Positions 6 through 62,956 of a stretch of 64,000 bases of DNA are shown here, piece after piece (the first letter of the stretch is position 1; every line of letters begins with the position of its first letter). A program made the translations under genes and the position numbers. Below the pieces are notes generated by a model. It did no database searches. It was given only the letters and a program-made list of their open reading frames with translations, and had not been told where the DNA came from. Source of the DNA: Parcubacteria group bacterium GW2011_GWC1_45_14 (GTDB lineage Bacteria; Patescibacteriota; Minisyncoccia; Moranbacterales; GWC2-37-73); NCBI GenBank assembly GCA_001001345.1, contig LCKI01000001.1:339-64338 (forward strand), in the 5' to 3' direction.

Positions 6-1403
6 CTACCTCTTCGGCAGGCAAGCTTCCAGGCTCCATATGTTAGCTTTGGTTATTTCCGCTTTCACTATTTTTCCTACCAGATTTTTCCTATCGGATA
101 GCAACTTCACGTTTTTGAGCGTCCTCGTTTTTCCGAAATAAAATTTTATCCCGTGATCAGGCGAGCCTGATTTTACGGGGCCATCTTTTTCTTTTTCTAT
201 GAGAACCTCGATTTTTCTGCCGACATATTTTTTATTGTTGGCGAGCGCCGTCTTTTTGAGGATTTCGTTGAGGGATTTCTCGCGCCACTCCTTTTCCTTG
301 ATCGAAACGTTGTCTTTCATGTTCCAGGCGGCCGTTCCTGGGCGCGGGGAATATTGTCCGAAAAAAACCATATCGAATTTGGATTTTTCCATGACCATAG
401 CGGAATTTCCGAATTGTTTTTTTGTTTCCCCAGGGAAACCGACGATGATATCGGTCGTGATGGAATAGGGAGCATCCGGTTTGTATTTCTTGAAAGAAGT
501 TTTTATTTTCCTGATTAGTCCTAGGTAATGCTTTTGTGTATATTTCCTGTTCATTCTTCGGAGCACGCCGTCGTCTCCGGCTTGGATAGGAAGATGGATA
601 TTTTCGCAAACCTTCTTCAGTTTCGTGATAGTTTCGATCGCCACACTGTCCATATCCTTGGGATGAGAGGAAACAAAATGGATCCAGAATTTTCCAGGAA
701 TTCTGTCTACTTTCTTGAGAAGTTTGGCAAAGGATATTTTTTTATCCGCCTCATCGGCAGATGAATTCTTACTGCTGCTGCAGTAAGAATTCACATTTTG
801 CCCAAGAAGGGTGATGCTCTTGTATCCCTTTGCGACTAAGTTTTTTATTTCAGAAACTATCTCTTCTGCCGGCCTGGAAACCTCGCGTCCGCGCGCATAG
901 GGAACTACGCAATATGAACAGAAATTGTCGCACCCGGTCATTATGGGCACGTATGCGGAAAAAGTGTTTTTGTATTTAGGATTTATTGATAAATAACCTA
1001 TATGCTCTTTATTGTGGAGGGTATTTTGCATCTCGTATTTTGTATCTTGTATTTTCGAATCCATACTAAATACTTGATACAGGATACTTGATACTTTTTC
1101 ACGGAAATCTTTGATTTCCGTGAAAAGATCGACGTCCTTCATTCTGCGGTGGATATCTTTCCTGTTAGCCAGGCATCCCGTGACTACTATTTTTATTTTC
1201 GGATTGTCTTTTTTGAGATTTCTGACTAGCCCGAAAACCCGGTCTTCCGCCATCTGGCGGACTCCGCAGGTATTCAGGATTACCAAGTCGGAGTCTTCTA
1301 TTTTTTCAGCAAGATCAAAACCGCTGCTTTCCAAAAAAGAAGATACGCGTTCGCTGTCGGAAACGTTCATCTGGCATCCGAAAGTTTTTATGAAATAGGT
1401 CAT
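6..1403 (-). CDS. miaB: tRNA-i6A37 methylthiotransferase MiaB (radical SAM MTTase); start moved to MTYFIKTFGCQMN
   Basis: N-terminal MTTase motif FGCQMN, radical SAM CDNFCSYCVVPYARG, C-terminal TRAM-like region; ATG at 1401-1403. Confidence 0.85.
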   Translation of the reverse strand: MTYFIKTFGCQMNVSDSERVSSFLESSGFDLAEKIEDSDLVILNTCGVRQMAEDRVFGLVRNLKKDNPKIKIVVTGCLANRKDIHRRMKDVDLFTEIKDFREKVSSILYQVFSMDSKIQDTKYEMQNTLHNKEHIGYLSINPKYKNTFSAYVPIMTGCDNFCSYCVVPYARGREVSRPAEEIVSEIKNLVAKGYKSITLLGQNVNSYCSSSKNSSADEADKKISFAKLLKKVDRIPGKFWIHFVSSHPKDMDSVAIETITKLKKVCENIHLPIQAGDDGVLRRMNRKYTQKHYLGLIRKIKTSFKKYKPDAPYSITTDIIVGFPGETKKQFGNSAMVMEKSKFDMVFFGQYSPRPGTAAWNMKDNVSIKEKEWREKSLNEILKKTALANNKKYVGRKIEVLIEKEKDGPVKSGSPDHGIKFYFGKTRTLKNVKLLSDRKNLVGKIVKAEITKANIWSLEACLPKR

Positions 1404-1460
1404 AGTTATATTTTTTATAGGGCAGTTCATAATAACAGGAAAACAGGATCGATGCAATGA

Positions 1461-2231
1461 TTAGCGGCATTTGAGATACATTAAAAACTCCTTTTTTCCT
1501 TTTCCTCCCAGAATAGGAGAGTCCGTGATTCCTATGATTTCAAACCCTAAATCTTTGGAGAGATTTTTTATTTTTTCGATGACTTCTTCGTGGAGATTTT
1601 CTTTGTTCACTATACCTTTTTTGATATGCTTTTTTCCTACTTCGAATTGCGGTTTGATGAGCGTGACGATTTCCCCTTTGGTTGAAATCAGTTCAGCGGC
1701 TTTCGGTAGGATATGCGAGAGGGAAATGAATGAGACGTCGATGCAGATGAAATCCAAAAGCTCGGAAAAATTTTCCTTGGATAGGTTTTTGATATGGGTG
1801 TTTTCCATATTCACGACCCTCTCGTCGCTCCTCAGTTTTTCCGCCAATTGTCCGCTACCCACGTCGACGGAGTAAACTTTCTCAGCCTTGTTTTCCAGTA
1901 GAACCTGGGCGAATCCTCCGGTACATGCTCCAAAGTCGGCGCATATTTTATTTTTGACGTCGATGTTCCAATGCTCCAATGCATGTTCCAGTTTCAAGCC
2001 GGCGCGCGAAACCCAGGGAATGTCCTGTTTAATTATTTCAATTTTTGAATTCTCATCCACTTGCTGGGTGGGTTTTGTCGCGATTTTGCCATTCACCCTG
2101 TTAAATTGCTCCGCACCGCCTTCAGCGGATTTAACAGGGTAAATCAAAACACCCCCGTCTTTAATGAGGTTTTTGGCGCGCTCCCTTGATTGCGCCAAGC
2201 CATTTTTTACCAGTAATGCATCCAGTCTCAT
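1461..2231 (-). CDS. tlyA: TlyA-family rRNA 2'-O-methyltransferase (S4 domain + FtsJ-like MTase)
   Basis: S4-like N-terminus (RLDALLVKNGLAQSRERAKNLI), FtsJ motif DFGACTGGF; contains in-frame repeat insertion at 2091-2143. Confidence 0.8.
   Translation of the reverse strand: MRLDALLVKNGLAQSRERAKNLIKDGGVLIYPVKSAEGGAEQFNRVNGKIATKPTQQVDENSKIEIIKQDIPWVSRAGLKLEHALEHWNIDVKNKICADFGACTGGFAQVLLENKAEKVYSVDVGSGQLAEKLRSDERVVNMENTHIKNLSKENFSELLDFICIDVSFISLSHILPKAAELISTKGEIVTLIKPQFEVGKKHIKKGIVNKENLHEEVIEKIKNLSKDLGFEIIGITDSPILGGKGKKEFLMYLKCR
2091..2143. repeat. Palindromic nested-hairpin element copy A, inserted in-frame inside tlyA (encodes YPVKSAEGGAEQFNRVN)
   Basis: ttcaccctgttaaat ... atttaacagggt inverted arms with internal hairpin, same family as copies at 11359, 14846, 14921, 42951, 56444, 62888. 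Confidence 0.6.
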
Positions 2232-4043: not shown

Positions 4044-4411
4044 AAATTTTTAACGGCAATTTCAAATGCCAAATTGTAAATTTCAAATCAATGTCTTAAT
4101 TGCAAAATGTTTTAAGATTTGTCATTTGAGAATTTAAAATTCATTTGGAATTTGAAATTTTTAATTTGTAATTCTTATAAATAAAAAACACCCTGAAATA
4201 TGAGAATAGGAAAAATTAATTTTCCAATATCGAGGCTTCCGGTTTCGTTCGGAGGCGGTTCCACTCGATTTCCCATAATTTCTTGGGCACTTTATGCGCC
4301 TATTCGTAGGCCGCTTGAACGGAAGCTCCGCGGATGGTTGGGCCGCATCTGCGCTTCATTCGATTGTGGTTTTATTATATGGAAATATGACCCATTTGTC
4401 AATAAGTATAG

Positions 4412-11358: not shown

Positions 11359-11427
11359 ACAAAAATTCACCCTGTGAAATCCCCGACGAGTCGGGGTCCG
11401 CCTCCAGCGGAATTTCACAGGGTAAAA
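11359..11427. repeat. Palindromic nested-hairpin element copy B, 5' of the amidohydrolase gene
   Basis: acaaaaattcaccctgtgaaat ... aatttcacagggtaaaa with two internal hairpins. Confidence 0.6.
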
Positions 11428-11437
11428 AACAAACAAG

Positions 11438-13033
11438 ATGTACGATATTTTGATAAAAAACGGCACGATCGTGGATGGCACAGGCAATCCGATGTATAAG
11501 GGGGATGTGGGCATAAAGGATGGATTGATCAAGGAGATAGGAGATTTGCATAACGAAAACGCGGAAAAAATCATCAATGCCTTGGGGAAATTGGTTGTCC
11601 CGGGGTTCGTTGATGTGAACAATCATTCCGATACTTATTGGCGAATTTTTATTGATCCGAATCTGGAAAGCTTGCTTCATCAGGGAATCACGACGATAGT
11701 AGGCGGGAATTGCGGATCATCCCTGGCTCCCCTGGTCAACAAGGATATTATCAAATCCATCCAAAAATGGGTCGATATCAAAGGGGTCAATCTTAACTGG
11801 CTTTCGGTTGGGGAATTTCTTGATGAGATAGAAAGACGGAAATTGCCGGTTAATTTCGCTACGCTCGTGGGGCATGGAACATTACGCCGGGGAATCATCC
11901 AGGATGAGGTCCGCGATCTCACTTCGTCCGAAATAGACATGATGGAGAAAATGCTCAAGGATGCGATGAAGGACGGGGCTATCGGCTTCTCCACGGGTCT
12001 TGTTTATACGCACGCAAAACGCGCTTCGCAAGACGAGATAATGCGCTTGGCCGAGGTGGTCAAAAAATACGAAGGAGTGTATACCACGCACGTCCGCGGT
12101 GAATCCGGAGAACTTATCGACGCTGTCGAGGAGGCGGTCAATATCGCCCAAAAGACTGGGGTGAAGCTCCAGGTTTCGCATCTTAAGGCCATGGGAGAGA
12201 GGCATTGGCATTTGATGGAAGAGGCTGTCAATCTGATCGAGACTGCTAGGATGAGCGGATTGGATATCAATTTCGACGTCTATCCGTATACCGCGACCGG
12301 GTCTGTTTTGTATATTCTGCTTCCGGACTGGGTTGCTGAAGGAGGAAAAAAACTCATGCTGCAAAGACTCAAGGATCCGGATATCAGGGCTAGGGCGATC
12401 AAGGAGATGAAGGAAGACGCCTTTGATTATTCTAAAATCGTGATTTCTATTTCCCCGTTAGACAAGACGCTGCGAAAAAAGAGTATCGCTGAAATAGCTA
12501 AAAGCCAAGGGAAAGGCATTGAGGAGGCTATAATCGACACCCTGATCGCCAGCGAGGGAAGAGTGGTTACCATGATGGAGGTCCTTAGTGAGAAAAATGT
12601 CAAAAACGCTATCCAAAATCCTTTTTCGATCATATCTTCTAATGGTAGCGGATATTCCATCGATCACCAGCAAACCGGAGAACTCGTGCATCCTAGGAAC
12701 TTCGGTTCTTTTCCGCGCGTGCTTGCTAAATATGTGAGGGCAAAGAGTCTTTTGAGTTGGGAGGAAGCTATCCGCAAGATGAGCGGGCTTCCGGCGGAAA
12801 AATTCGGCATAAGGAAAAGGGGAATTATCAAGGTGGATAATTTCGCGGATATCGTGGTTTTCGATAAAAACAATGTCGAGGATCTGTCCACGACCGACAA
12901 CCCGTACCAATATTCGAAAGGTATTGACTGGGTGGTCATAAATGGTAAGGTGGTAATTGACGAAACGAGGCTTACTGAAGCCAGGCCGGGTGCGGTCCTG
13001 CGGAGGGAGTCAAGGTCAATCTTTGAATTTTAA
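11438..13033 (+). CDS. Amidohydrolase, N-acyl-D-amino-acid deacylase (D-aminoacylase)-like; HxH metal motif replaced by NNH
   Basis: YDILIKNGTIVDGTG...VVPGFVDVNNHSD resembles D-aminoacylase N-terminus. Confidence 0.75.
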   Translation: MYDILIKNGTIVDGTGNPMYKGDVGIKDGLIKEIGDLHNENAEKIINALGKLVVPGFVDVNNHSDTYWRIFIDPNLESLLHQGITTIVGGNCGSSLAPLVNKDIIKSIQKWVDIKGVNLNWLSVGEFLDEIERRKLPVNFATLVGHGTLRRGIIQDEVRDLTSSEIDMMEKMLKDAMKDGAIGFSTGLVYTHAKRASQDEIMRLAEVVKKYEGVYTTHVRGESGELIDAVEEAVNIAQKTGVKLQVSHLKAMGERHWHLMEEAVNLIETARMSGLDINFDVYPYTATGSVLYILLPDWVAEGGKKLMLQRLKDPDIRARAIKEMKEDAFDYSKIVISISPLDKTLRKKSIAEIAKSQGKGIEEAIIDTLIASEGRVVTMMEVLSEKNVKNAIQNPFSIISSNGSGYSIDHQQTGELVHPRNFGSFPRVLAKYVRAKSLLSWEEAIRKMSGLPAEKFGIRKRGIIKVDNFADIVVFDKNNVEDLSTTDNPYQYSKGIDWVVINGKVVIDETRLTEARPGAVLRRESRSIFEF

Positions 13034-14845: not shown

Positions 14846-14910
14846 TTTTACCCTGTTAAATAATCCTGCTTGGGCGGGATTGCCGCTTAACGGCATTTAA
14901 CAGGGTGAAC
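14846..14910. repeat. Palindromic nested-hairpin element copy C1
   Basis: ccctgttaaataat ... atttaacagggtgaac. Confidence 0.6.
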
Positions 14911-14920
14911 AAAAATAAAT

Positions 14921-14990
14921 ACAAAAATTCACCCCTGTTAAATTGCGCTTGTAGCGCACCGGCCTTGCCGGATTTAACGGGGCAAGAAAA
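14921..14990. repeat. Palindromic nested-hairpin element copy C2 (tandem with C1)
   Basis: acaaaaattcacccctgttaaatt ... gatttaacggggcaagaaaa. Confidence 0.6.
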
Positions 14991-16577: not shown

Positions 16578-16641
16578 AAAAAAATTTCTAATTTCCATTT
16601 TTTAATTTTTAATCAAATCTAAATTTTAAATTTTCAATGGG

Positions 16642-17343: not shown

Positions 17344-17403
17344 AATTTGGTCATTGGAAATTGTTTAGGAATTAGAAATTAGTAATTAGAAATTTTTTAT
17401 CAT

Positions 17404-42950: not shown

Positions 42951-43025
42951 ACAAAAATTCACCCAGTTAAATAATTTTGCTTTTGGCAAAATTTCCGCAA
43001 AGCGGAATTTAACGGGGCAAGAAAG
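42951..43025. repeat. Palindromic nested-hairpin element copy D
   Basis: acaaaaattcacccagttaaataat ... aatttaacggggcaagaaag. Confidence 0.6.
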
Positions 43026-43106
43026 ATTATCTGAAAAAAAGACGCGGGGCTAACAGCTTCGTATACTACAGGATTTCTGACAGTATTTTAGAAGGAGGTG
43101 ACTATC

Positions 43107-43244
43107 ATGGCAAAGAAAAAAGTAGCTAAAAAAGCAGTAAAAAAGGCTGTAAAAAAAGTTGCAAAGAAGAAAGTTGCTAAAAAAGCTCCTAAAAAAGCTG
43201 TAAAAAAAGTAGCAAAGAAGAAGACTGCAAAAAGAAAAAAATAG
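43107..43244 (+). CDS. 45-aa Lys/Ala-rich histone H1-like basic protein (MAKKKVAKKAVKKAVKKVAKKKVAKKAPKKAVKKVAKKKTAKRKK)
   Basis: GAAGGAGG RBS 7 nt upstream, followed by terminator; below ORF-track length cut-off. Confidence 0.55.
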   Translation: MAKKKVAKKAVKKAVKKVAKKKVAKKAPKKAVKKVAKKKTAKRKK

Positions 43245-43348: not shown

Positions 43349-44269
43349 TCAATACGTCAAAGTGACTTTCGCCACCCTCCATTTTCCGGCCAGATCTTTT
43401 TTAAATTCCGTTTTCGCCTCGGGAAAGATTTCTTTTATGAGATCTTGAAGAGATGTTTTTTGCTCCGGACTTATTTCCATGTAGCATGTGACGTGTGCCA
43501 TTCGGCATGCAAGCGATTCCTTTATCTGGCTAAGAAGTTCCTCGTAGTGGCCCAGGCCTTGCTTGGGACTATACAGCGCCGATTTCGGTTCGAAATCCTT
43601 CACATCCTTGGGCGCGCTTTCGTAAATATCTTTTGAGAGATAGGGGAGGTTTGCCAGAATCACTATTTTAGAATTTCTAATTTCTAATTTCAAATTTCGA
43701 ATGAGCGGCTCGAGCAGGCTTCCATGCAGAAAGTCTACATCGTCAGCTACCTTATGGAGCTTGGCGTTTTTCTGGGCAACTTCCAATGCATCTTCACTCA
43801 TGTCGATCCCAAATAATGAGACGTGCTTATTGTTTTTCAATTCATGCGCAAGTGAGATTATGATGTTTCCTGATCCTGTTCCGATGTCGGCGACCGCGAT
43901 GCCGTCGCTTTGGCTGCGCAGCCCATCTTCGTCATGTTTCGTCGAGGCAAGCATGTTGCGTAGCAGTTTCAGTGAATCCTCGACGAGTATTTCCGTTTCC
44001 GGGCGGGGAATCAGGGTGTGCTTGTTGACGGAGAAATCCAATCCGTAAAATTCCTTGTGCTCCGTGATGTAAGCGAGCGGCTCACCCTTGATTCTTCTTC
44101 CTATATTTTTTTCAATTACGGATGACTGGTGACTAGTAACTGTCGCCTCCGGATGCGTTAAAATAAATTCCCTCGGCTTGGCAAGGGAATTTGCGATGAT
44201 AATCTCGGTATCGAACGCGTCCAGCTTATTTTTGTATTTTTGGATGATATTTTTGATCGTCATTATCAT
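43349..44269 (-). CDS. prmC: Release factor glutamine N5-methyltransferase PrmC/HemK (NPPY variant LANLPY)
   Basis: [12 protein letters not shown] motif, LANLPY, adjacent to prfA with 4-nt overlap. Confidence 0.85.
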
Positions 44270-48287: not shown

Positions 48288-48339
48288 ATAAATTTGAAAT
48301 TTGAATTGAAAAATTAAGAATTTAAAATTGCATACGAAT

Positions 48340-50605: not shown

Positions 50606-50641
50606 AGTATTTAGTATTTAGTATTTAGTATTTAGTATTTT
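50606..50641. repeat. 7-bp tandem repeat (gtattta)x4.5 followed by a hairpin aatactgtatacaagatacagtatt
   Basis: direct inspection. Confidence 0.7.
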
Positions 50642-50682
50642 TATACCGAATACAAAATACTGTATACAAGATACAGTATTTT

Positions 50683-50765: not shown

Positions 50766-50862
50766 CCGCGTAAAATCATGAGCTTTGCGAGTGATTTAAG
50801 CGCCCCGTGATAATTTGCGAAAGCGAATTATTTTACGGGGATATACCATTAAAAATAAGCTC

Positions 50863-51156
50863 ATGATCACGCGGCACGGCCGTGAGGGATTCTACTATGT
50901 ATATGTCATAGAAAATGACCATGATTTGAGTTGGTATATTGGATTTACGATTAATTTTGGAAAAAGATTGCAGGAGCACAACTCCGGTAAATCACCGTAT
51001 ACTTCCAGGAAACAGGGAAAACGGAGGGTTATATATGCGGAGTGTTATCTTTCCAAAAAAGATGCGTTGTCAAGGGAGGAATTCTTGAAATCCGGTTCTG
51101 GTAGAAGATTTTTAAAGAACCAATTAAAGAACTACTTGCACGCGACGCCGTTGTAG
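50863..51156 (+). CDS. GIY-YIG nuclease domain protein (YhbQ/UPF0213-like), stop overlaps 5' end of tRNA-Thr(GGU)
   Basis: FYYVYVIEN...WYIGFTINFGKRLQEHNSG. Confidence 0.6.
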   Translation: MITRHGREGFYYVYVIENDHDLSWYIGFTINFGKRLQEHNSGKSPYTSRKQGKRRVIYAECYLSKKDALSREEFLKSGSGRRFLKNQLKNYLHATPL

Positions 51157-51505: not shown

Positions 51506-51667
51506 ATGGGACACATCAAGGACACGATGGCGAAGATGCGATGCTCCGAATGCAAGGAGATCAACTATTATTCTTCACGCAACAAGAAGAAAGTGAAGGA
51601 GAAACTTGAGATGAACAAGTATTGCAAGAGATGCCAGAAGCATACGCTTCACAAGGAAATGAAATAA
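51506..51667 (+). CDS. rpmG: 50S ribosomal protein L33
   Basis: [44 protein letters not shown]; below ORF-track cut-off. Confidence 0.8.
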
Positions 51668-51733
51668 CCTGTCAGTCGCGACTGACGGGTTAAACCCGTT
51701 GCTCGCGAGCGACGGGTTAGCTCCTTCTGACTT

Positions 51734-51982
51734 ATGCATTACGTCTATCTTCTTAAATTGGAAAACACCAAAAAGAATTTTTATATTGGTTGTACTTCTG
51801 ATTTGAAGAGGCGTTTACGTGAGCATCAGTCTGGGAATACTCAAACGACAAAAGGAAAAAATCCCAAACTTATCTATTATGAAGCATTTTCCGATAAGGA
51901 TTTGGCTCAAAAAAGAGAAGAGGGATTGAAAACAAGCGGATCCGTTTATAATGCGCTGATAAGAAGGTTGGGATTAAGATAA
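51734..51982 (+). CDS. Second GIY-YIG nuclease domain protein, flanked by 20-nt direct repeats
   Basis: HYVYLLKLEN...FYIGCTSDLKRRLREHQSG. Confidence 0.6.
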   Translation: MHYVYLLKLENTKKNFYIGCTSDLKRRLREHQSGNTQTTKGKNPKLIYYEAFSDKDLAQKREEGLKTSGSVYNALIRRLGLR

Positions 51983-51986
51983 GATT

Positions 51987-52055
51987 GCGGGCATCGTATA
52001 GTGGTAATACGGCGGTCTCACCAGTCAGTCGCGACTGACGGGTGTCTCCAAAACC
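51987..52055 (+). pseudogene. Pseudo tRNA-Trp: 5' half (to anticodon loop) carrying 26-nt palindromic insertion with ctc duplication, no T-arm/3' half
   Basis: identical to 52088-52120 of intact tRNA-Trp then accagtcagtcgcgactgacgggtgt insert. Confidence 0.45.
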
Positions 52056-56443: not shown

Positions 56444-56508
56444 ACAAAAATTCACCCTGTTGAATCCCCGATGCTTCGGGGTCGGCTGGGCCGAATTCAA
56501 CAGGGTAA
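56444..56508. repeat. Palindromic nested-hairpin element copy E, right arm abuts ATG of oxidoreductase
   Basis: aaaacaaaaattcaccctgttgaat ... attcaacagggtaa. Confidence 0.6.
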
Positions 56509-57873
56509 ATGAAAAAAATACTTTCAATCGGTTGCGGAGGAGCTGGAATGTTCAGTGCCATCGTCGCGACGCAACTGAGAAAGGGGGAATTTGAGGCGAT
56601 AGTGCTTTCGGATGAGAAGGATATCTATTGCCGTTGCACGACGCCGTATATCGTGACGGGAGAAGCCCAGCTATGCGACGCTATCCAGCCGGAGAGCATG
56701 ATCGAGAGTTATGGTCCGAAAATCGTGCATGAAAAAGCTATCAGTATAAATACTAAAAAGAAACACGTCCTTACGAAAGAAGGGCACATTTTCGATTATG
56801 ACTACCTGGTCATCGCTACCGGAGCATCTCCCTTTGTTCCCCAAATCAAGGGAATAGATTCCGAAAAGGTCTATACAGTCAGAAACAGTTCCGATATGGA
56901 ATGCATCCAAGGGTGCCTGGGAAAATCCAAGAGCGCGGTCGTGGTCGGCGCGGGAGTCATCGGGATCGAGATGGCGGGAGCGCTAAGAGCCAGAGGTCTG
57001 GACGTGAGTTTGGTGGAATACGCGTCCTCGCTTTCTTCCGGCATCGCCGACAAGGAATTTTCCAAAAAAATAATCTCCCACCTGGAAGAGAATGGAATAA
57101 GGACGATGTTCAGAAGCAAAGTCGTGGAGATCAATGACGCATCAAGAAAAAGAAAAGAAATAGTTATTAAAAAAGGAAGGAATCAGGAGAAACTGGTCGC
57201 CGATTTCGTGGTAGTGGCGGCGGGAATACGCCCCAATTTGGATGTCATCGAAGGAACGAAGATCAAAGCCAATCAATTCGGGATATTGGTTGATGGGAAA
57301 ATGCAGACGAACGCGAAGGACGTCTATGCTTGCGGAGATTGCGCTGTGCCTATTTCGGCGGTGACTGGAAAAAACGAGCCGAGCTCGCTGGCTTCAAGCG
57401 CTATCCAACAGTCCAAGATCGTCGGCTACCAGATGGCCAGTTTTCCAATCAAATATGCCGGCTCGACCGGGGCGTTCGCTTTCCAGACGCTCGGAAAAGA
57501 ATATGCGGCTGCGGGACTGACCGAGGAGGAAGCGCGCAAGAAATTCAGGTGGGTGGTCGTTGGACGCGCCGCGACTACGGATGTGTATAAGGATTTGGAA
57601 CGTAACAAGCCCTTGGACGTGAAACTGATCTTTGCCGGACCCAAGATGAGGTTGGTCGGTTATGAAGGTTTCGGCAACGGAGTGATCGCCTCGGCGGAAG
57701 TGGCCAGTTTCGCGATCGGACTCCGTCTGAATATCTTGAAAGTCCTGAAATTCAACTACATCGCTCATCCGAGCCTGACTCCTTGGCCGTTCATGAATCC
57801 GATTATCATGGCGACCGAGGACGCGGTGGGGAGTATTATGAAAAAAATCAAGGTTTTTTTCGGGAAAAAATAG
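56509..57873 (+). CDS. FAD-dependent pyridine nucleotide-disulfide oxidoreductase (NADH oxidase/CoA-disulfide reductase family)
   Basis: GCGGAG FAD motif, VVVGAGVIGIEMAGAL NAD motif, redox Cys YCRCTTPY. Confidence 0.8.
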   Translation: MKKILSIGCGGAGMFSAIVATQLRKGEFEAIVLSDEKDIYCRCTTPYIVTGEAQLCDAIQPESMIESYGPKIVHEKAISINTKKKHVLTKEGHIFDYDYLVIATGASPFVPQIKGIDSEKVYTVRNSSDMECIQGCLGKSKSAVVVGAGVIGIEMAGALRARGLDVSLVEYASSLSSGIADKEFSKKIISHLEENGIRTMFRSKVVEINDASRKRKEIVIKKGRNQEKLVADFVVVAAGIRPNLDVIEGTKIKANQFGILVDGKMQTNAKDVYACGDCAVPISAVTGKNEPSSLASSAIQQSKIVGYQMASFPIKYAGSTGAFAFQTLGKEYAAAGLTEEEARKKFRWVVVGRAATTDVYKDLERNKPLDVKLIFAGPKMRLVGYEGFGNGVIASAEVASFAIGLRLNILKVLKFNYIAHPSLTPWPFMNPIIMATEDAVGSIMKKIKVFFGKK

Positions 57874-61491: not shown

Positions 61492-62907
61492 ATGGCGGAG
61501 AAAAAGGAAAACATGATGGAAAAAATCGTTTCGCTTTGCAAAAGGAGGGGTTTTGCGTTCCCTTCATCCGAAATCTACGGAGGGTTCGCGGCTATCTATG
61601 ATTACGGGCATTACGGAACGCTTCTCAAAAACAATATCCGCGACGCCTGGTGGAGGCATATGGTGCAATACAGGGATGACGTCGTCGGTTTGGACAGCGC
61701 GATCTTCATGCATCCCACGACCTGGAAAGCTTCCGGGCACATAGACAGCTTCGATGATCCGCAGATCGATTGCAAGAAATGCAAAGCCAGGATGAGGGCG
61801 GACCATGTCTTGGAGCTTTTCGGCATCAGCGCCGACAAGGCCCCCTTGGATTTCATCAATGTCGAATTGGGGAAATTGCGCGAACTTGGAAAATTGAAAT
61901 GCCAGACTTGCGGTTCGGATGAATTGACTGAGGCGAAAAGATTTTCCTTGATGGTCAAATCGAATCTGGGATCCCCGACGGATGCCCTCAGTGAGGAGAA
62001 TGTGGTGTATTTGCGTCCGGAAACTTGCGGAGGGATATACTTGGAATACAAAAACACTTTGGATTCGACCCGCGTGAAACTCCCTTTCGGAATAGCCCAA
62101 GTGGGAAAAGCGTTCAGGAATGAAATCGTGGCGAGGCAGTTCGTTTTCAGGACGAGGGAATTCGAGCAGATGGAGATGCAATACTTCCTGCACCCGAAGG
62201 ATATGAAGGAGAAATATGATATGTGGAAGCAGGTCAGATGGGATTGGTACAAGGAATATGGCATGGGCGAGGATGATGTCAGGTGGTACGAGCATGAGAA
62301 ATTGGCGCACTACGCTTCGGAAGCCTATGACGTCGAATATAATTTCAAATCCTTGGGAGGCTTCAAGGAAGTGGAAGGAATCCATGCTAGGGGCGATTGG
62401 GATCTTTCCCAGCACAGCAAGTTCTCCGGAACCGACCTGAGTTATTTCGATGAAAAGACTGGAGAGAAATTCATTCCCCATATTATGGAGACATCAGTGG
62501 GTCTCAACCGTCTGTTTTTGATGTTTATCGACAAGGCTTACACTGAAGAGGAAATCAGCGGTGAGATAAGGACCGTCCTTAAGTTCGACAAGAGGTTGGC
62601 TCCGATTAAGGTCGCCATCTTCCCTTTGATGAAAAACAGGCCCGAACTGGTCGGAAAAGCCAGGGAAATCTATGACAATCTCAAACTCAGTTTCATGTGC
62701 GAATTCGACGACAACGGAAATGTCGGAAAAAGATACCGCCGACAGGACGAGATCGGAACCCCGTATTGCGTAACCGTGGATTTCGATTCTCTGGAAAAAG
62801 GCGACGTGACGGTGCGCGACCGCGACACGATGGAGCAGGAAAGGGTGAAAATAGAAGAATTGGAAAATTATTTCACGGAGAAGTTTAATGTTCACCCTGT
62901 TAAATAA
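61492..62907 (+). CDS. glyQS: Glycyl-tRNA synthetase, alpha2 dimeric type
   Basis: KRRGFAFPSSEIYGGFAAIYDYGHYGTLLKNNIRDAWW N-terminus; last 5 codons and stop supplied by repeat copy F. Confidence 0.85.
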   Translation: MAEKKENMMEKIVSLCKRRGFAFPSSEIYGGFAAIYDYGHYGTLLKNNIRDAWWRHMVQYRDDVVGLDSAIFMHPTTWKASGHIDSFDDPQIDCKKCKARMRADHVLELFGISADKAPLDFINVELGKLRELGKLKCQTCGSDELTEAKRFSLMVKSNLGSPTDALSEENVVYLRPETCGGIYLEYKNTLDSTRVKLPFGIAQVGKAFRNEIVARQFVFRTREFEQMEMQYFLHPKDMKEKYDMWKQVRWDWYKEYGMGEDDVRWYEHEKLAHYASEAYDVEYNFKSLGGFKEVEGIHARGDWDLSQHSKFSGTDLSYFDEKTGEKFIPHIMETSVGLNRLFLMFIDKAYTEEEISGEIRTVLKFDKRLAPIKVAIFPLMKNRPELVGKAREIYDNLKLSFMCEFDDNGNVGKRYRRQDEIGTPYCVTVDFDSLEKGDVTVRDRDTMEQERVKIEELENYFTEKFNVHPVK

Positions 62908-62956
62908 TTTTGCTTAGGCAAAATTCCTGCGCTGCAGGATTCAACGGGGCAAGAAT
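62888..62956. repeat. Palindromic nested-hairpin element copy F overlapping glyQS stop
   Basis: ttcaccctgttaaataat ... attcaacggggcaagaatc. Confidence 0.6.

Follow-up and report, generated by a model that had tools for sequence, protein, structure and literature searches.

The tlyA gene lies on the minus strand of the 64-kb stretch of DNA that was analysed (hereafter the window), from a Moranbacteria-like bacterium of the candidate phyla radiation, with miaB, thrS and dnaE as its neighbours, and carries within its coding sequence a copy of a short palindromic repeat. The gene and the insertion are located as follows:

1461..2231, minus strand: tlyA, 256 aa, with N-terminal S4 and FtsJ-type methyltransferase domains; TlyA-family rRNA (cytidine-2'-O)-methyltransferase
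2094..2141, minus strand: net in-frame insertion, codons 31-46; a gap in the empty alleles L001 and L003

A profile search places the product in the TlyA family (224 bits against TIGR00478, cut-off 185.8), with both the S4 and FtsJ domains present, and the reading frame remains open despite the insert. The Pfam FtsJ match spans residues 73-254. The Pfam S4 match covers residues 1-30 only, equivalent to positions 1-30 of the 48-position profile, and its end coincides with the start of the repeat. By breaking the S4 match in this way, the insert illustrates how such sequences can mislead annotation.

The segment in tlyA is an in-frame insertion of a copy of a dispersed palindromic repeat. In a DNA alignment of the window tlyA with the sister alleles L001 and L003, the sole indel is a clean gap of 48 columns; the net insertion is 48 nt, or 16 codons (residues 31-46, YPVKSAEGGAEQFNRV), and reads TACCCTGTTAAATCCGCTGAAGGCGGTGCGGAGCAATTTAACAGGGTG on the coding strand, flanked by ATT and (A/G)A(T/C). 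When 74 TlyA sequences were aligned with MAFFT, the first 15 of the 16 insert columns were occupied only in the window protein and in P0002 and were gaps in the other 72, which come from several phyla. The last insert column holds the ancestral V/I in these 72 insert-free orthologues, a placement made by MAFFT, and N47, the residue next after the insert, falls at the D/N position of the ancestral V-(D/N)-G motif. An earlier note, made from sequence alone, had given the insert as 51 nt and 17 codons. This figure failed; it is one codon too long because N47 belongs to the ancestral motif.

Among close TlyA relatives, the segment is present in P0001, a protein relative found by search, and in P0002 (256-257 aa), which comes from a Candidatus Moranbacteria MAG (GCA_003508985.1), and is missing from P0003 and P0004 (241 aa). 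It is also absent from the solved TlyA homologues 3HP7 and 7S0S, as judged by comparison with the PDB entries. The filled tlyA allele was found in three assemblies, namely the window, the contig of P0001 and locus L002 of GCA_003508985.1. One could argue that the segment belongs to the ancestral TlyA sequence, or that it is a loop specific to the lineage or an artefact of assembly. The only point in favour of this explanation is the presence of the segment in an intact ORF. Against it stand the 72 of 74 orthologues without the segment, the clean 48-nt indel relative to the sister alleles, the membership of this DNA in a repeat family represented by six more copies in the window, and the occurrence of the segment in three independent assemblies. 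We consider the explanation virtually ruled out, and both an ancestral segment and an assembly artefact were rejected on the basis of the orthologue gaps, the sister-allele indel and the recurrence in assemblies.

The overall fold of TlyA is preserved in the predicted structure. An AlphaFold2 model based on the 74-sequence TlyA alignment has a mean pLDDT of 89.5 and superimposes with a TM score of 0.84 on 7S0S_B, full-length M. tuberculosis TlyA bound to the 50S subunit. The insert is the sole poorly predicted part of the model (pLDDT <50 at residues 37-44) and sits between the S4-domain strands at residues 28-31 (GVLI) and 49-51. The model thus predicts, with low confidence for the insert itself, an additional loop where the S4 domain runs strand-turn-strand, with the TlyA fold kept. 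TlyA carrying the insert probably still works, with a loop that is neutral or mildly costly, though retained function is inferred and we have no activity data.

With the exception of its length, the earlier note's account of this site held. It had placed a repeat at this position in tlyA, where we find CCCTGTTAAAT-22 nt-ATTTAACAGGG at 2096-2139, and had described the reading frame as preserved and the insert as lying inside the S4 domain, both borne out by the sister-allele alignment, Pfam and the model. The three checks it had proposed were also passed: in the orthologue alignment, 72 of 74 TlyA sequences lack the insert, so the segment is not ancestral; in the structure model, the insert is a low-confidence loop between two S4 strands; and in sister lineages, two tlyA alleles (L001 and L003) lack exactly the 48-nt segment.

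Read on the plus strand of the window, the element is TTCACCCTGTTAAAT-TGCTCCGCA-CCGCCTTCAGCGG-ATTTAACAGGGTAAA at 2092-2143, TT/AA ends included, and comprises the following parts:

2092..2106, plus strand: left arm, TTCACCCTGTTAAAT; 15-nt arm kept over 104 copies, pairs with the right arm
2107..2115, plus strand: inner mini-hairpin 1, TGC-TCC-GCA; predicted in the DNA fold, on both strands
2116..2128, plus strand: inner hairpin 2, CCGC-CTTCA-GCGG; a fold prediction
2129..2143, plus strand: right arm, ATTTAACAGGGTAAA; conserved over copies, pairs with the left arm

The family shares this plan, in which conserved 15-nt inverted arms, TTYACCCTGTKRAAT and ATTYMACAGGGTRAA, enclose two short hairpins of free sequence; elements are 52-65 nt long and their arms are 20-45 nt apart. 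The core palindrome of the tlyA copy has an expectation of 0 in dinucleotide-preserving shuffles. As single-stranded DNA, the tlyA element is predicted to fold into a three-way junction on either strand (-16.2 and -17.5 kcal/mol, z ~ -7), and every copy tested folds as a Y (z -7 to -8). An interior length of 22 nt is common to the tlyA copy and 10 others. For 66 of 104 copies, two hairpins are present when the interior is folded to its minimum energy, and most copies without two called hairpins have two mini-hairpins too weak for calling. The loops of the inner hairpins are mostly C-NNN-G triloops, and the interiors of copies within one genome differ completely in sequence. The arms co-vary, with complementarity kept in 100/105 and 103/105 copies at the degenerate positions (Fisher p = 4e-23 and 1e-14, not corrected for relatedness), and TT/AA are conserved beyond the search pattern, the counts among 104 copies being 93-97 at the left end and 75-86 at the right.

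Several observations bear on whether this structure operates in DNA or in RNA. The inner hairpins are of equal stability on both strands, and their order is not tied to an asymmetric arm position described next; these two features together favour a DNA-level structure. At that position, T.G (C.A when the opposite strand is read) outnumbers Watson-Crick pairs by 38 copies to 12, which could reflect either unequal ends of the element or a G.U pair. As an orientation marker this position was uninformative, given that no fixed order of the inner hairpins goes with it and no strand bias in stability was seen. No conserved unpaired nucleotides were found among the element copies.

The window contains seven copies of the family, the one in tlyA and six on the plus strand, all with the same arms, unrelated interiors and two hairpins each. 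The six are:

11366..11426, plus strand: family copy between rnc and an amidohydrolase gene; ends 12 nt before the start codon at 11438
14847..14909, plus strand: first member of a tandem pair of family copies located downstream of murD
14928..14986, plus strand: second member of the tandem pair of family copies, with the variant GGGGCAAG as its right flank
42958..43021, plus strand: family copy upstream of a lysine-rich small gene
56451..56509, plus strand: family copy adjoining the ATG of a CoA-disulfide-reductase-like gene; missing in L124 and L125
62891..62953, plus strand: family copy giving glyS its last codons and stop (...VHPVK*); at the same site in L124 and L125

The copies at 11366, 42958 and 56451 lie directly upstream of start codons, and the two tandem copies (14847-14909 and 14928-14986) lie between convergent genes. 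A search of the window proteins for further decayed inserts, using the PVK...FNRV peptide motif, gave the tlyA case only.

Beyond the window, one genome per species (596 Gb) was scanned with the pattern ACCCWGTKRAAT-N18-48-ATTYMACRGGG, and the arms were found in at least 120 contigs; a complete CPR genome, CP179888.1, is an example of a carrier. About a third of these contigs are labelled Patescibacteria and are spread over many candidate lineages; the other phylum labels are Bacteroidota (including the cultured Mesohalobacter halotolerans), Desulfobacterota, Omnitrophota, Cloacimonadota, WOR-3/Stahlbacteria and a few more. By our rough count, a few tens of chance matches to such a degenerate pattern can be expected in 596 Gb. 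The case for a family therefore rests on the complementarity of the arms, the TT/AA ends and the inner hairpins, and some matches with unstructured interiors may be due to chance or belong to a different family. With strict criteria applied, Patescibacteria show the strongest signal (23 of 43 loci). A WOR-3 group and a few others have unstructured interiors and could represent a different family with the same arms. By eye, subfamily traits track phylum, as for the TGTGGAAT arms with GC-rich hairpins in Desulfobacterales, and the GC content of element-bearing contigs differs by group; both observations argue against simple contamination of bins.

Searches of plasmid and phage collections gave chance-level partial matches only, and IMG/VR gave one contig, so the element is not phage- or plasmid-borne in those collections. 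No Rfam family was assigned to any copy in the window, in one tandem pair or in 11 loci from other phyla, with either gathering or E-value thresholds. The best Rfam match over a copy reached 20.8 bits against a gathering score of 55, and matches elsewhere in these sequences were to tRNAs and DUF805 RNAs only. In the literature we searched, we found neither the arm sequences nor a paper on RPE-like or MITE elements in candidate-phyla-radiation (CPR) bacteria, and the repeat family appears to be undescribed.

The insertion into TlyA is not a single event of its kind. In-frame copies occur in at least 11 proteins of other genomes, usually read HPVK...FNRV, the commonest reading being (V/I)HPVK(S/C)...(Q/L)FNRVK. 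The hosts include LepA (705 bits) and GatA (585 bits), RsmA/KsgA, whose match is split in two, and a DegT-type aminotransferase whose match is split at the insert, as well as TIM, HolB, two GT4 glycosyltransferases, a SAM methyltransferase, a CopZ-fusion membrane protein and a LeuRS-like protein. The earlier note had also claimed that the repeat behaves like the Rickettsia palindromic elements (RPEs). This held for behaviour, on the evidence of these at least 11 other housekeeping proteins; by size, sequence and host the element is not an RPE.

The arms themselves offer open frames. In one, xTT YAC CCT GTT AAA is read (I/V)(H/Y)PVK and TTT AAC AGG GTR is read FNRV; a second, TLLN...LTG, stays open if the flank supplies neither TAA nor TGA; in the third, both arms contain TAA, the exception being the TGTGGAAT variant, where this frame is read PCGI...IPQGE. 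We counted a copy as genic if it was spanned by an ORF with at least 45 codons on both sides, and only 13 of 105 copies met this definition. This number is well below what we would expect of gene-dense genomes and would fit selection that removes most genic insertions, although the genic expectation was not measured. The interior length is 1 mod 3 in 12 of the 13 genic copies, since the HPVK...FNRV reading requires such a length. The same length class is seen in 46 of 92 non-genic copies, an excess that is unexplained.

Two sites in the window, besides tlyA, could be compared with the relatives L124 and L125, which have 88% protein identity and were reached through the gene at 56509. At the first, the copy at 56451-56509 is missing from both: between identical anchors, our count from the alignment gives 69 nt in the window versus 16 nt in L124/L125, a net difference of 53 nt. 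At the second, the copy at the end of glyS (62891-62953) is shared; its inner stems are intact and its loops changed, and its arms have changed without compensation in the partner arm. In more distant Moranbacteria-like loci (22 loci, 70% identity or less), no copy was found. Presence and absence is thus shown at two loci, tlyA and 56451. Some of the insertions postdate the split from L124/L125, and one predates it and is decaying, as would be expected for a repeat that undergoes insertion followed by decay. The copies absent in relatives support recent activity of the family in the lineage of the window.

No target-site duplication was found at either polymorphic site (tlyA and 56451). At the junctions, a few additional changes separate both filled sites from the empty ones, and because of these the ends of the element cannot be fixed to the nucleotide. 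A-rich AAAAACAAAAA sites look favoured as targets.

A first rival to a mobile DNA repeat is that the family is a structured RNA motif, acting as an mRNA stabiliser, processing site or translational regulator, and that the tlyA copy is a by-product of its spread. In support, structure is conserved while the inner hairpin sequences are free, the T.G/C.A arm position (38 versus 12) resembles a G.U pair, the copies at 11366, 42958 and 56451 lie just before start codons, and the inner stems are kept in the 62891 copy shared with L124 and L125. On the other side, there is no Rfam match, the inner hairpins fold equally well on both strands, the asymmetric arm position comes without a fixed order of the inner hairpins, and no unpaired nucleotides are conserved. 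Copies also lie inside ORFs, at 3´ ends and between convergent genes; the 56451 copy is dispensable in close relatives, and the arms of the 62891 copy decay without compensation. We regard this rival as unlikely. A regulatory RNA role cannot be excluded, given the three intergenic copies just upstream of start codons.

The tlyA allele of L002 shows 0 differences from the window over alignment columns 1-180, which include the insert; beyond column 180 it follows the empty-type allele L003, to which it is identical in most 60-column blocks, while columns 301-420 contain 8 differences. This mosaic could have arisen by homologous recombination onto another backbone, or it could be a co-assembly chimera. 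Beside the indel, columns 61-120 contain 10 differences between filled and empty alleles, as against 1 in columns 1-60, and by our codon reading five of the 10 are synonymous. Clustering of this type might be expected if recombination homogenises the flanks but is blocked near the heterology, in which case the indel would be older than the flanks look. Within the insert, P0001 has one amino acid replacement, A to T. If this reflects a change from GCG to ACG, a single G-to-A substitution, mini-hairpin 1 would be broken, which fits drift; the DNA of P0001 was not read.

These data bear on a second rival, in which the insert has been co-opted, such that the loop alters the contact of the TlyA S4 domain with rRNA and is kept by selection. 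The position of the insert in an RNA-binding domain, the intact filled allele in three assemblies, the L002 insert on an otherwise empty-type backbone, and the 10 versus 1 substitutions beside the indel, which suggest that the indel is old relative to its flanks, can all be cited for it. However, the loop is predicted with low confidence, the insert is limited to a narrow lineage, the non-synonymous A to T change in P0001 fits drift, and the sequences are too few for a dN/dS test. We consider co-option very unlikely.

A third rival is that the arms are a binding or recombination site for a Xer-, integron- or telomere-resolvase-like recombinase, or an uptake-type signal, with spread by site-specific or homologous recombination and not by transposition. 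Several features point this way: the GTTAAAT and ATTTAAC motifs fit the attC box consensuses; the XerD arm of E. coli dif contains TGTTAAAT; arm conservation extends across phyla and no target-site duplication is present; and transfer by homologous recombination would be in line with the finding that L002 has the insert on an allele that is otherwise empty-type. However, the order of the attC boxes is reversed and many copies have GTG for GTT, the copies are scattered among housekeeping genes and do not form cassette arrays beside an integrase, the arms are 20-45 nt apart as opposed to 6-8 nt in dif, and an uptake signal common to many phyla is improbable. This rival is, in our judgement, very doubtful.

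We therefore return to a mobile DNA repeat. The explanation that best accounts for the data, and one we consider likely, is that the tlyA segment is a copy of a small, non-autonomous mobile DNA repeat defined by its structure. In this model, a copy entered tlyA in an ancestor of the strain group, and would have survived there through a length that is a multiple of three, a stop-free frame in the arms, and landing in a strand-strand turn of the S4 domain that lets 16 extra residues loop out. An unidentified enzyme that acts in trans and recognises either the arms or the folded form is probably responsible for moving the element, which leaves no target-site duplication. Movement through a folded single-strand or cruciform intermediate is inferred, as is the filter of selection on insertions. 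One observation sits awkwardly with this explanation, in that completely different inner hairpins in one genome are unusual for recently amplified MITEs. The differing hairpins could mean that there is selection on structure for a host function.

No candidate for the enzyme was identified between or beside the arms in the 120 loci and the window, and no long element with the same arms was seen. The 10 small window ORFs scanned against Pfam include no transposase or recombinase, one being a GIY-YIG protein. In a search for an autonomous partner, solo arms 0.1-2 kb apart had era, an outer-membrane protein or a longer Y-shaped variant between them and in no case a transposase, and all-against-all clustering of 713 ORFs from 120 loci revealed no recurrent protein family near the copies.

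A bolder reading of the same data is that the family represents an undescribed, multi-phylum class of mobile elements in which the 15-nt arm pair is the sole conserved sequence and encloses hairpins of any sequence, with a Y-shaped intermediate and an unknown enzyme acting in trans. Such elements would have repeatedly added new surface loops to essential CPR enzymes, because the arms are stop-free in two frames (all three in the TGTGGAAT variant); the recipients would be TlyA, LepA, GatA, RsmA, TIM, HolB, LeuRS and the tail of GlyRS. We lean slightly against this reading.

In-frame colonisation of essential genes by palindromic repeats has been studied mainly in Rickettsia. Our data document the same behaviour in the small, gene-dense genomes of uncultured candidate-phyla-radiation bacteria, with arms common to several phyla. 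Candidate-phyla-radiation lineages are known for odd insertions in conserved genes, and the element provides one way in which loops are added to proteins there. Its filled and empty alleles constitute a clean natural set for studying how proteins tolerate random inserts of 16-21 residues, and the 15-nt arms provide a sequence handle for finding the unknown mobilising enzyme.

How does the element compare with known systems? Candidates suggested by short sequence likenesses were set aside: attC identity for the reversed box order and the common GTG variants, dif and XerD arms for wrong spacing and order, parS on the same grounds and for sharing only six bases in one variant only, and the IS608 TTAC target for the symmetry of both element ends. 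The integron attC site is defined by the consensuses R' GTTRRRY and R'' RYYYAAC, in the order R''...R', and is found in cassette arrays with IntI nearby. Like attC, the element is defined by structure and has a variable interior, and its arm motifs fit R' and R''. Unlike attC, it has the boxes in the order GTTAAAT...ATTTAAC, with GTG for GTT in many copies, and its copies are scattered among housekeeping genes without cassette arrays or an adjacent integrase.

REP/REPIN-RAYT systems (Y1 HUH) and the palindrome-associated elements derived from IS200/IS605 are thought to move as folded single strands. The element resembles them in forming hairpins, in lacking target-site duplications and in its tandem or clustered copies. 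REPs carry a GTAG-type guide tetranucleotide, are extragenic and occur in genomes with a RAYT gene. In contrast, the element has no GTAG-type motif among its conserved positions or beside the stems, many of its copies are intragenic, and it is the outer stem that is conserved, not the hairpins. Neither the 10 small window ORFs searched with Pfam nor the surroundings of the loci revealed a Y1 transposase; the rest of the genome was not covered.

Further parallels are with RPEs and MITEs. RPEs are ~150 bp long and form 10 families, and nearly half of 44 copies lie within ORFs of R. conorii (PMC10969869). As with RPEs, we see dispersed palindromic repeats that are repeatedly found in frame inside unrelated housekeeping genes, an extra peptide tolerated by the host protein, and the absence of a known gene for mobilisation. 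The RPE criterion of repeated in-frame insertion into unrelated genes is met, whereas those of a length of ~100-150 bp and of a Rickettsia family and host are not, a verdict that rests on size and host without alignment to an RPE consensus. The element is 52-65 nt, as opposed to ~150 nt, and folds as a Y with two inner hairpins of free sequence; its hosts are Patescibacteria and other phyla, not Rickettsia; and only the 15-nt arms are conserved, so the added peptide is conserved only at its ends (HPVK...FNRV). With MITEs such as Correia/NEMIS, ERIC and Nezha it shares a short, non-autonomous, multi-copy and mostly intergenic nature, occasional in-frame copies in genes, and terminal inverted repeats, a feature met by the conserved complementary 15-nt arms. 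Unlike MITEs, it shows no target-site duplication at two polymorphic sites, its interior is not conserved between copies in one genome, and no parent insertion sequence with the same ends was found in the 120 loci and the window, whole genomes not being covered. The element thus acts like an RPE or a MITE, yet meets the membership criteria of neither.

The tlyA gene of GCA_003508985.1 (L002:363-1136, a relative's locus in which tlyA is filled) is a mosaic when compared with window 1461-2231. Across alignment columns 1-180, insert included, it does not differ from the window, and past column 180 it is nearly identical to the insert-free allele of the sister locus L003. The mosaic reflects either recombination or a chimera arising from co-assembly. 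Substitutions are concentrated next to the tlyA indel, with 10 differences in columns 61-120 compared with 1 in columns 1-60, and five of the indel-flank differences are synonymous (codons read by eye from the alignment). This cluster is listed below with the other features discussed.

Features discussed in the text (window coordinates)
2142-2165: substitution cluster, coding-strand flank directly upstream of the tlyA insert
61492-62907: glycine-tRNA ligase gene, 3´ end within element copy 62891-62953
11355, 42947, 56440 and five others: AAAAACAAAAA sites
6-1457, minus strand: miaB, neighbour of tlyA, with extra DNA at 1021-1095
4058-4173, 16583-16614, 17364-17394, 43658-43702, 48292-48322: AATTTC/TAATTT-type repeat

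An element copy also forms the end of the glycine-tRNA ligase gene, where the final ...VHPVK and the TAA stop both come from the copy. The arrangement is matched in the relatives' loci L124 and L125, whose genes read ...VYPVK and then stop.

The A-rich sequence AAAAACAAAAA occurs 8 times in the window (0.48 expected), and at three of these occurrences it is immediately adjoined by the left arm of an element. Given that a similar A-rich run is already present at the empty site in L124, these observations suggest that AAAAACAAAAA is a favoured insertion target rather than a piece of the element.

Among copies outside long ORFs at the arm-pattern scan loci, 46 of 92 have an interior length of 1 mod 3, giving a total that is a multiple of three; this exceeds the expected one third, and no cause was identified. 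The architecture tolerates larger interiors, since L110:5170-5323 is a version of ~150 nt with unchanged arms and two far longer inner hairpins.

The window miaB carries ~48 nt more than its L002 and L003 counterparts, at a divergent linker. This extra DNA is made up of GTATC/AGTATTT-type repeats, which are the inverted complement of the intergenic stretch between two tRNA genes at 50606-50674, itself containing five AGTATTT units in tandem. It is possible that a second repeat, unrelated to the tlyA element, was inserted in frame in this adjoining gene. A 113-aa GIY-YIG-domain ORF (50815-51156) adjoins tRNA genes and is followed by three copies of the 24-nt palindrome ACCTGTCAGTCGCGACTGACGGGT (51667-52043).

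The AT-rich intergenic AATTTC/TAATTT-type repeat, found repeatedly in both orientations, is a family distinct from the tlyA palindromic element. Immediately downstream of element copy 42958 lies a small gene (43098-43223) with lysine/alanine-rich repeats (AKKAVKK...) of 12-nt period, which is histone-H1-like in appearance.
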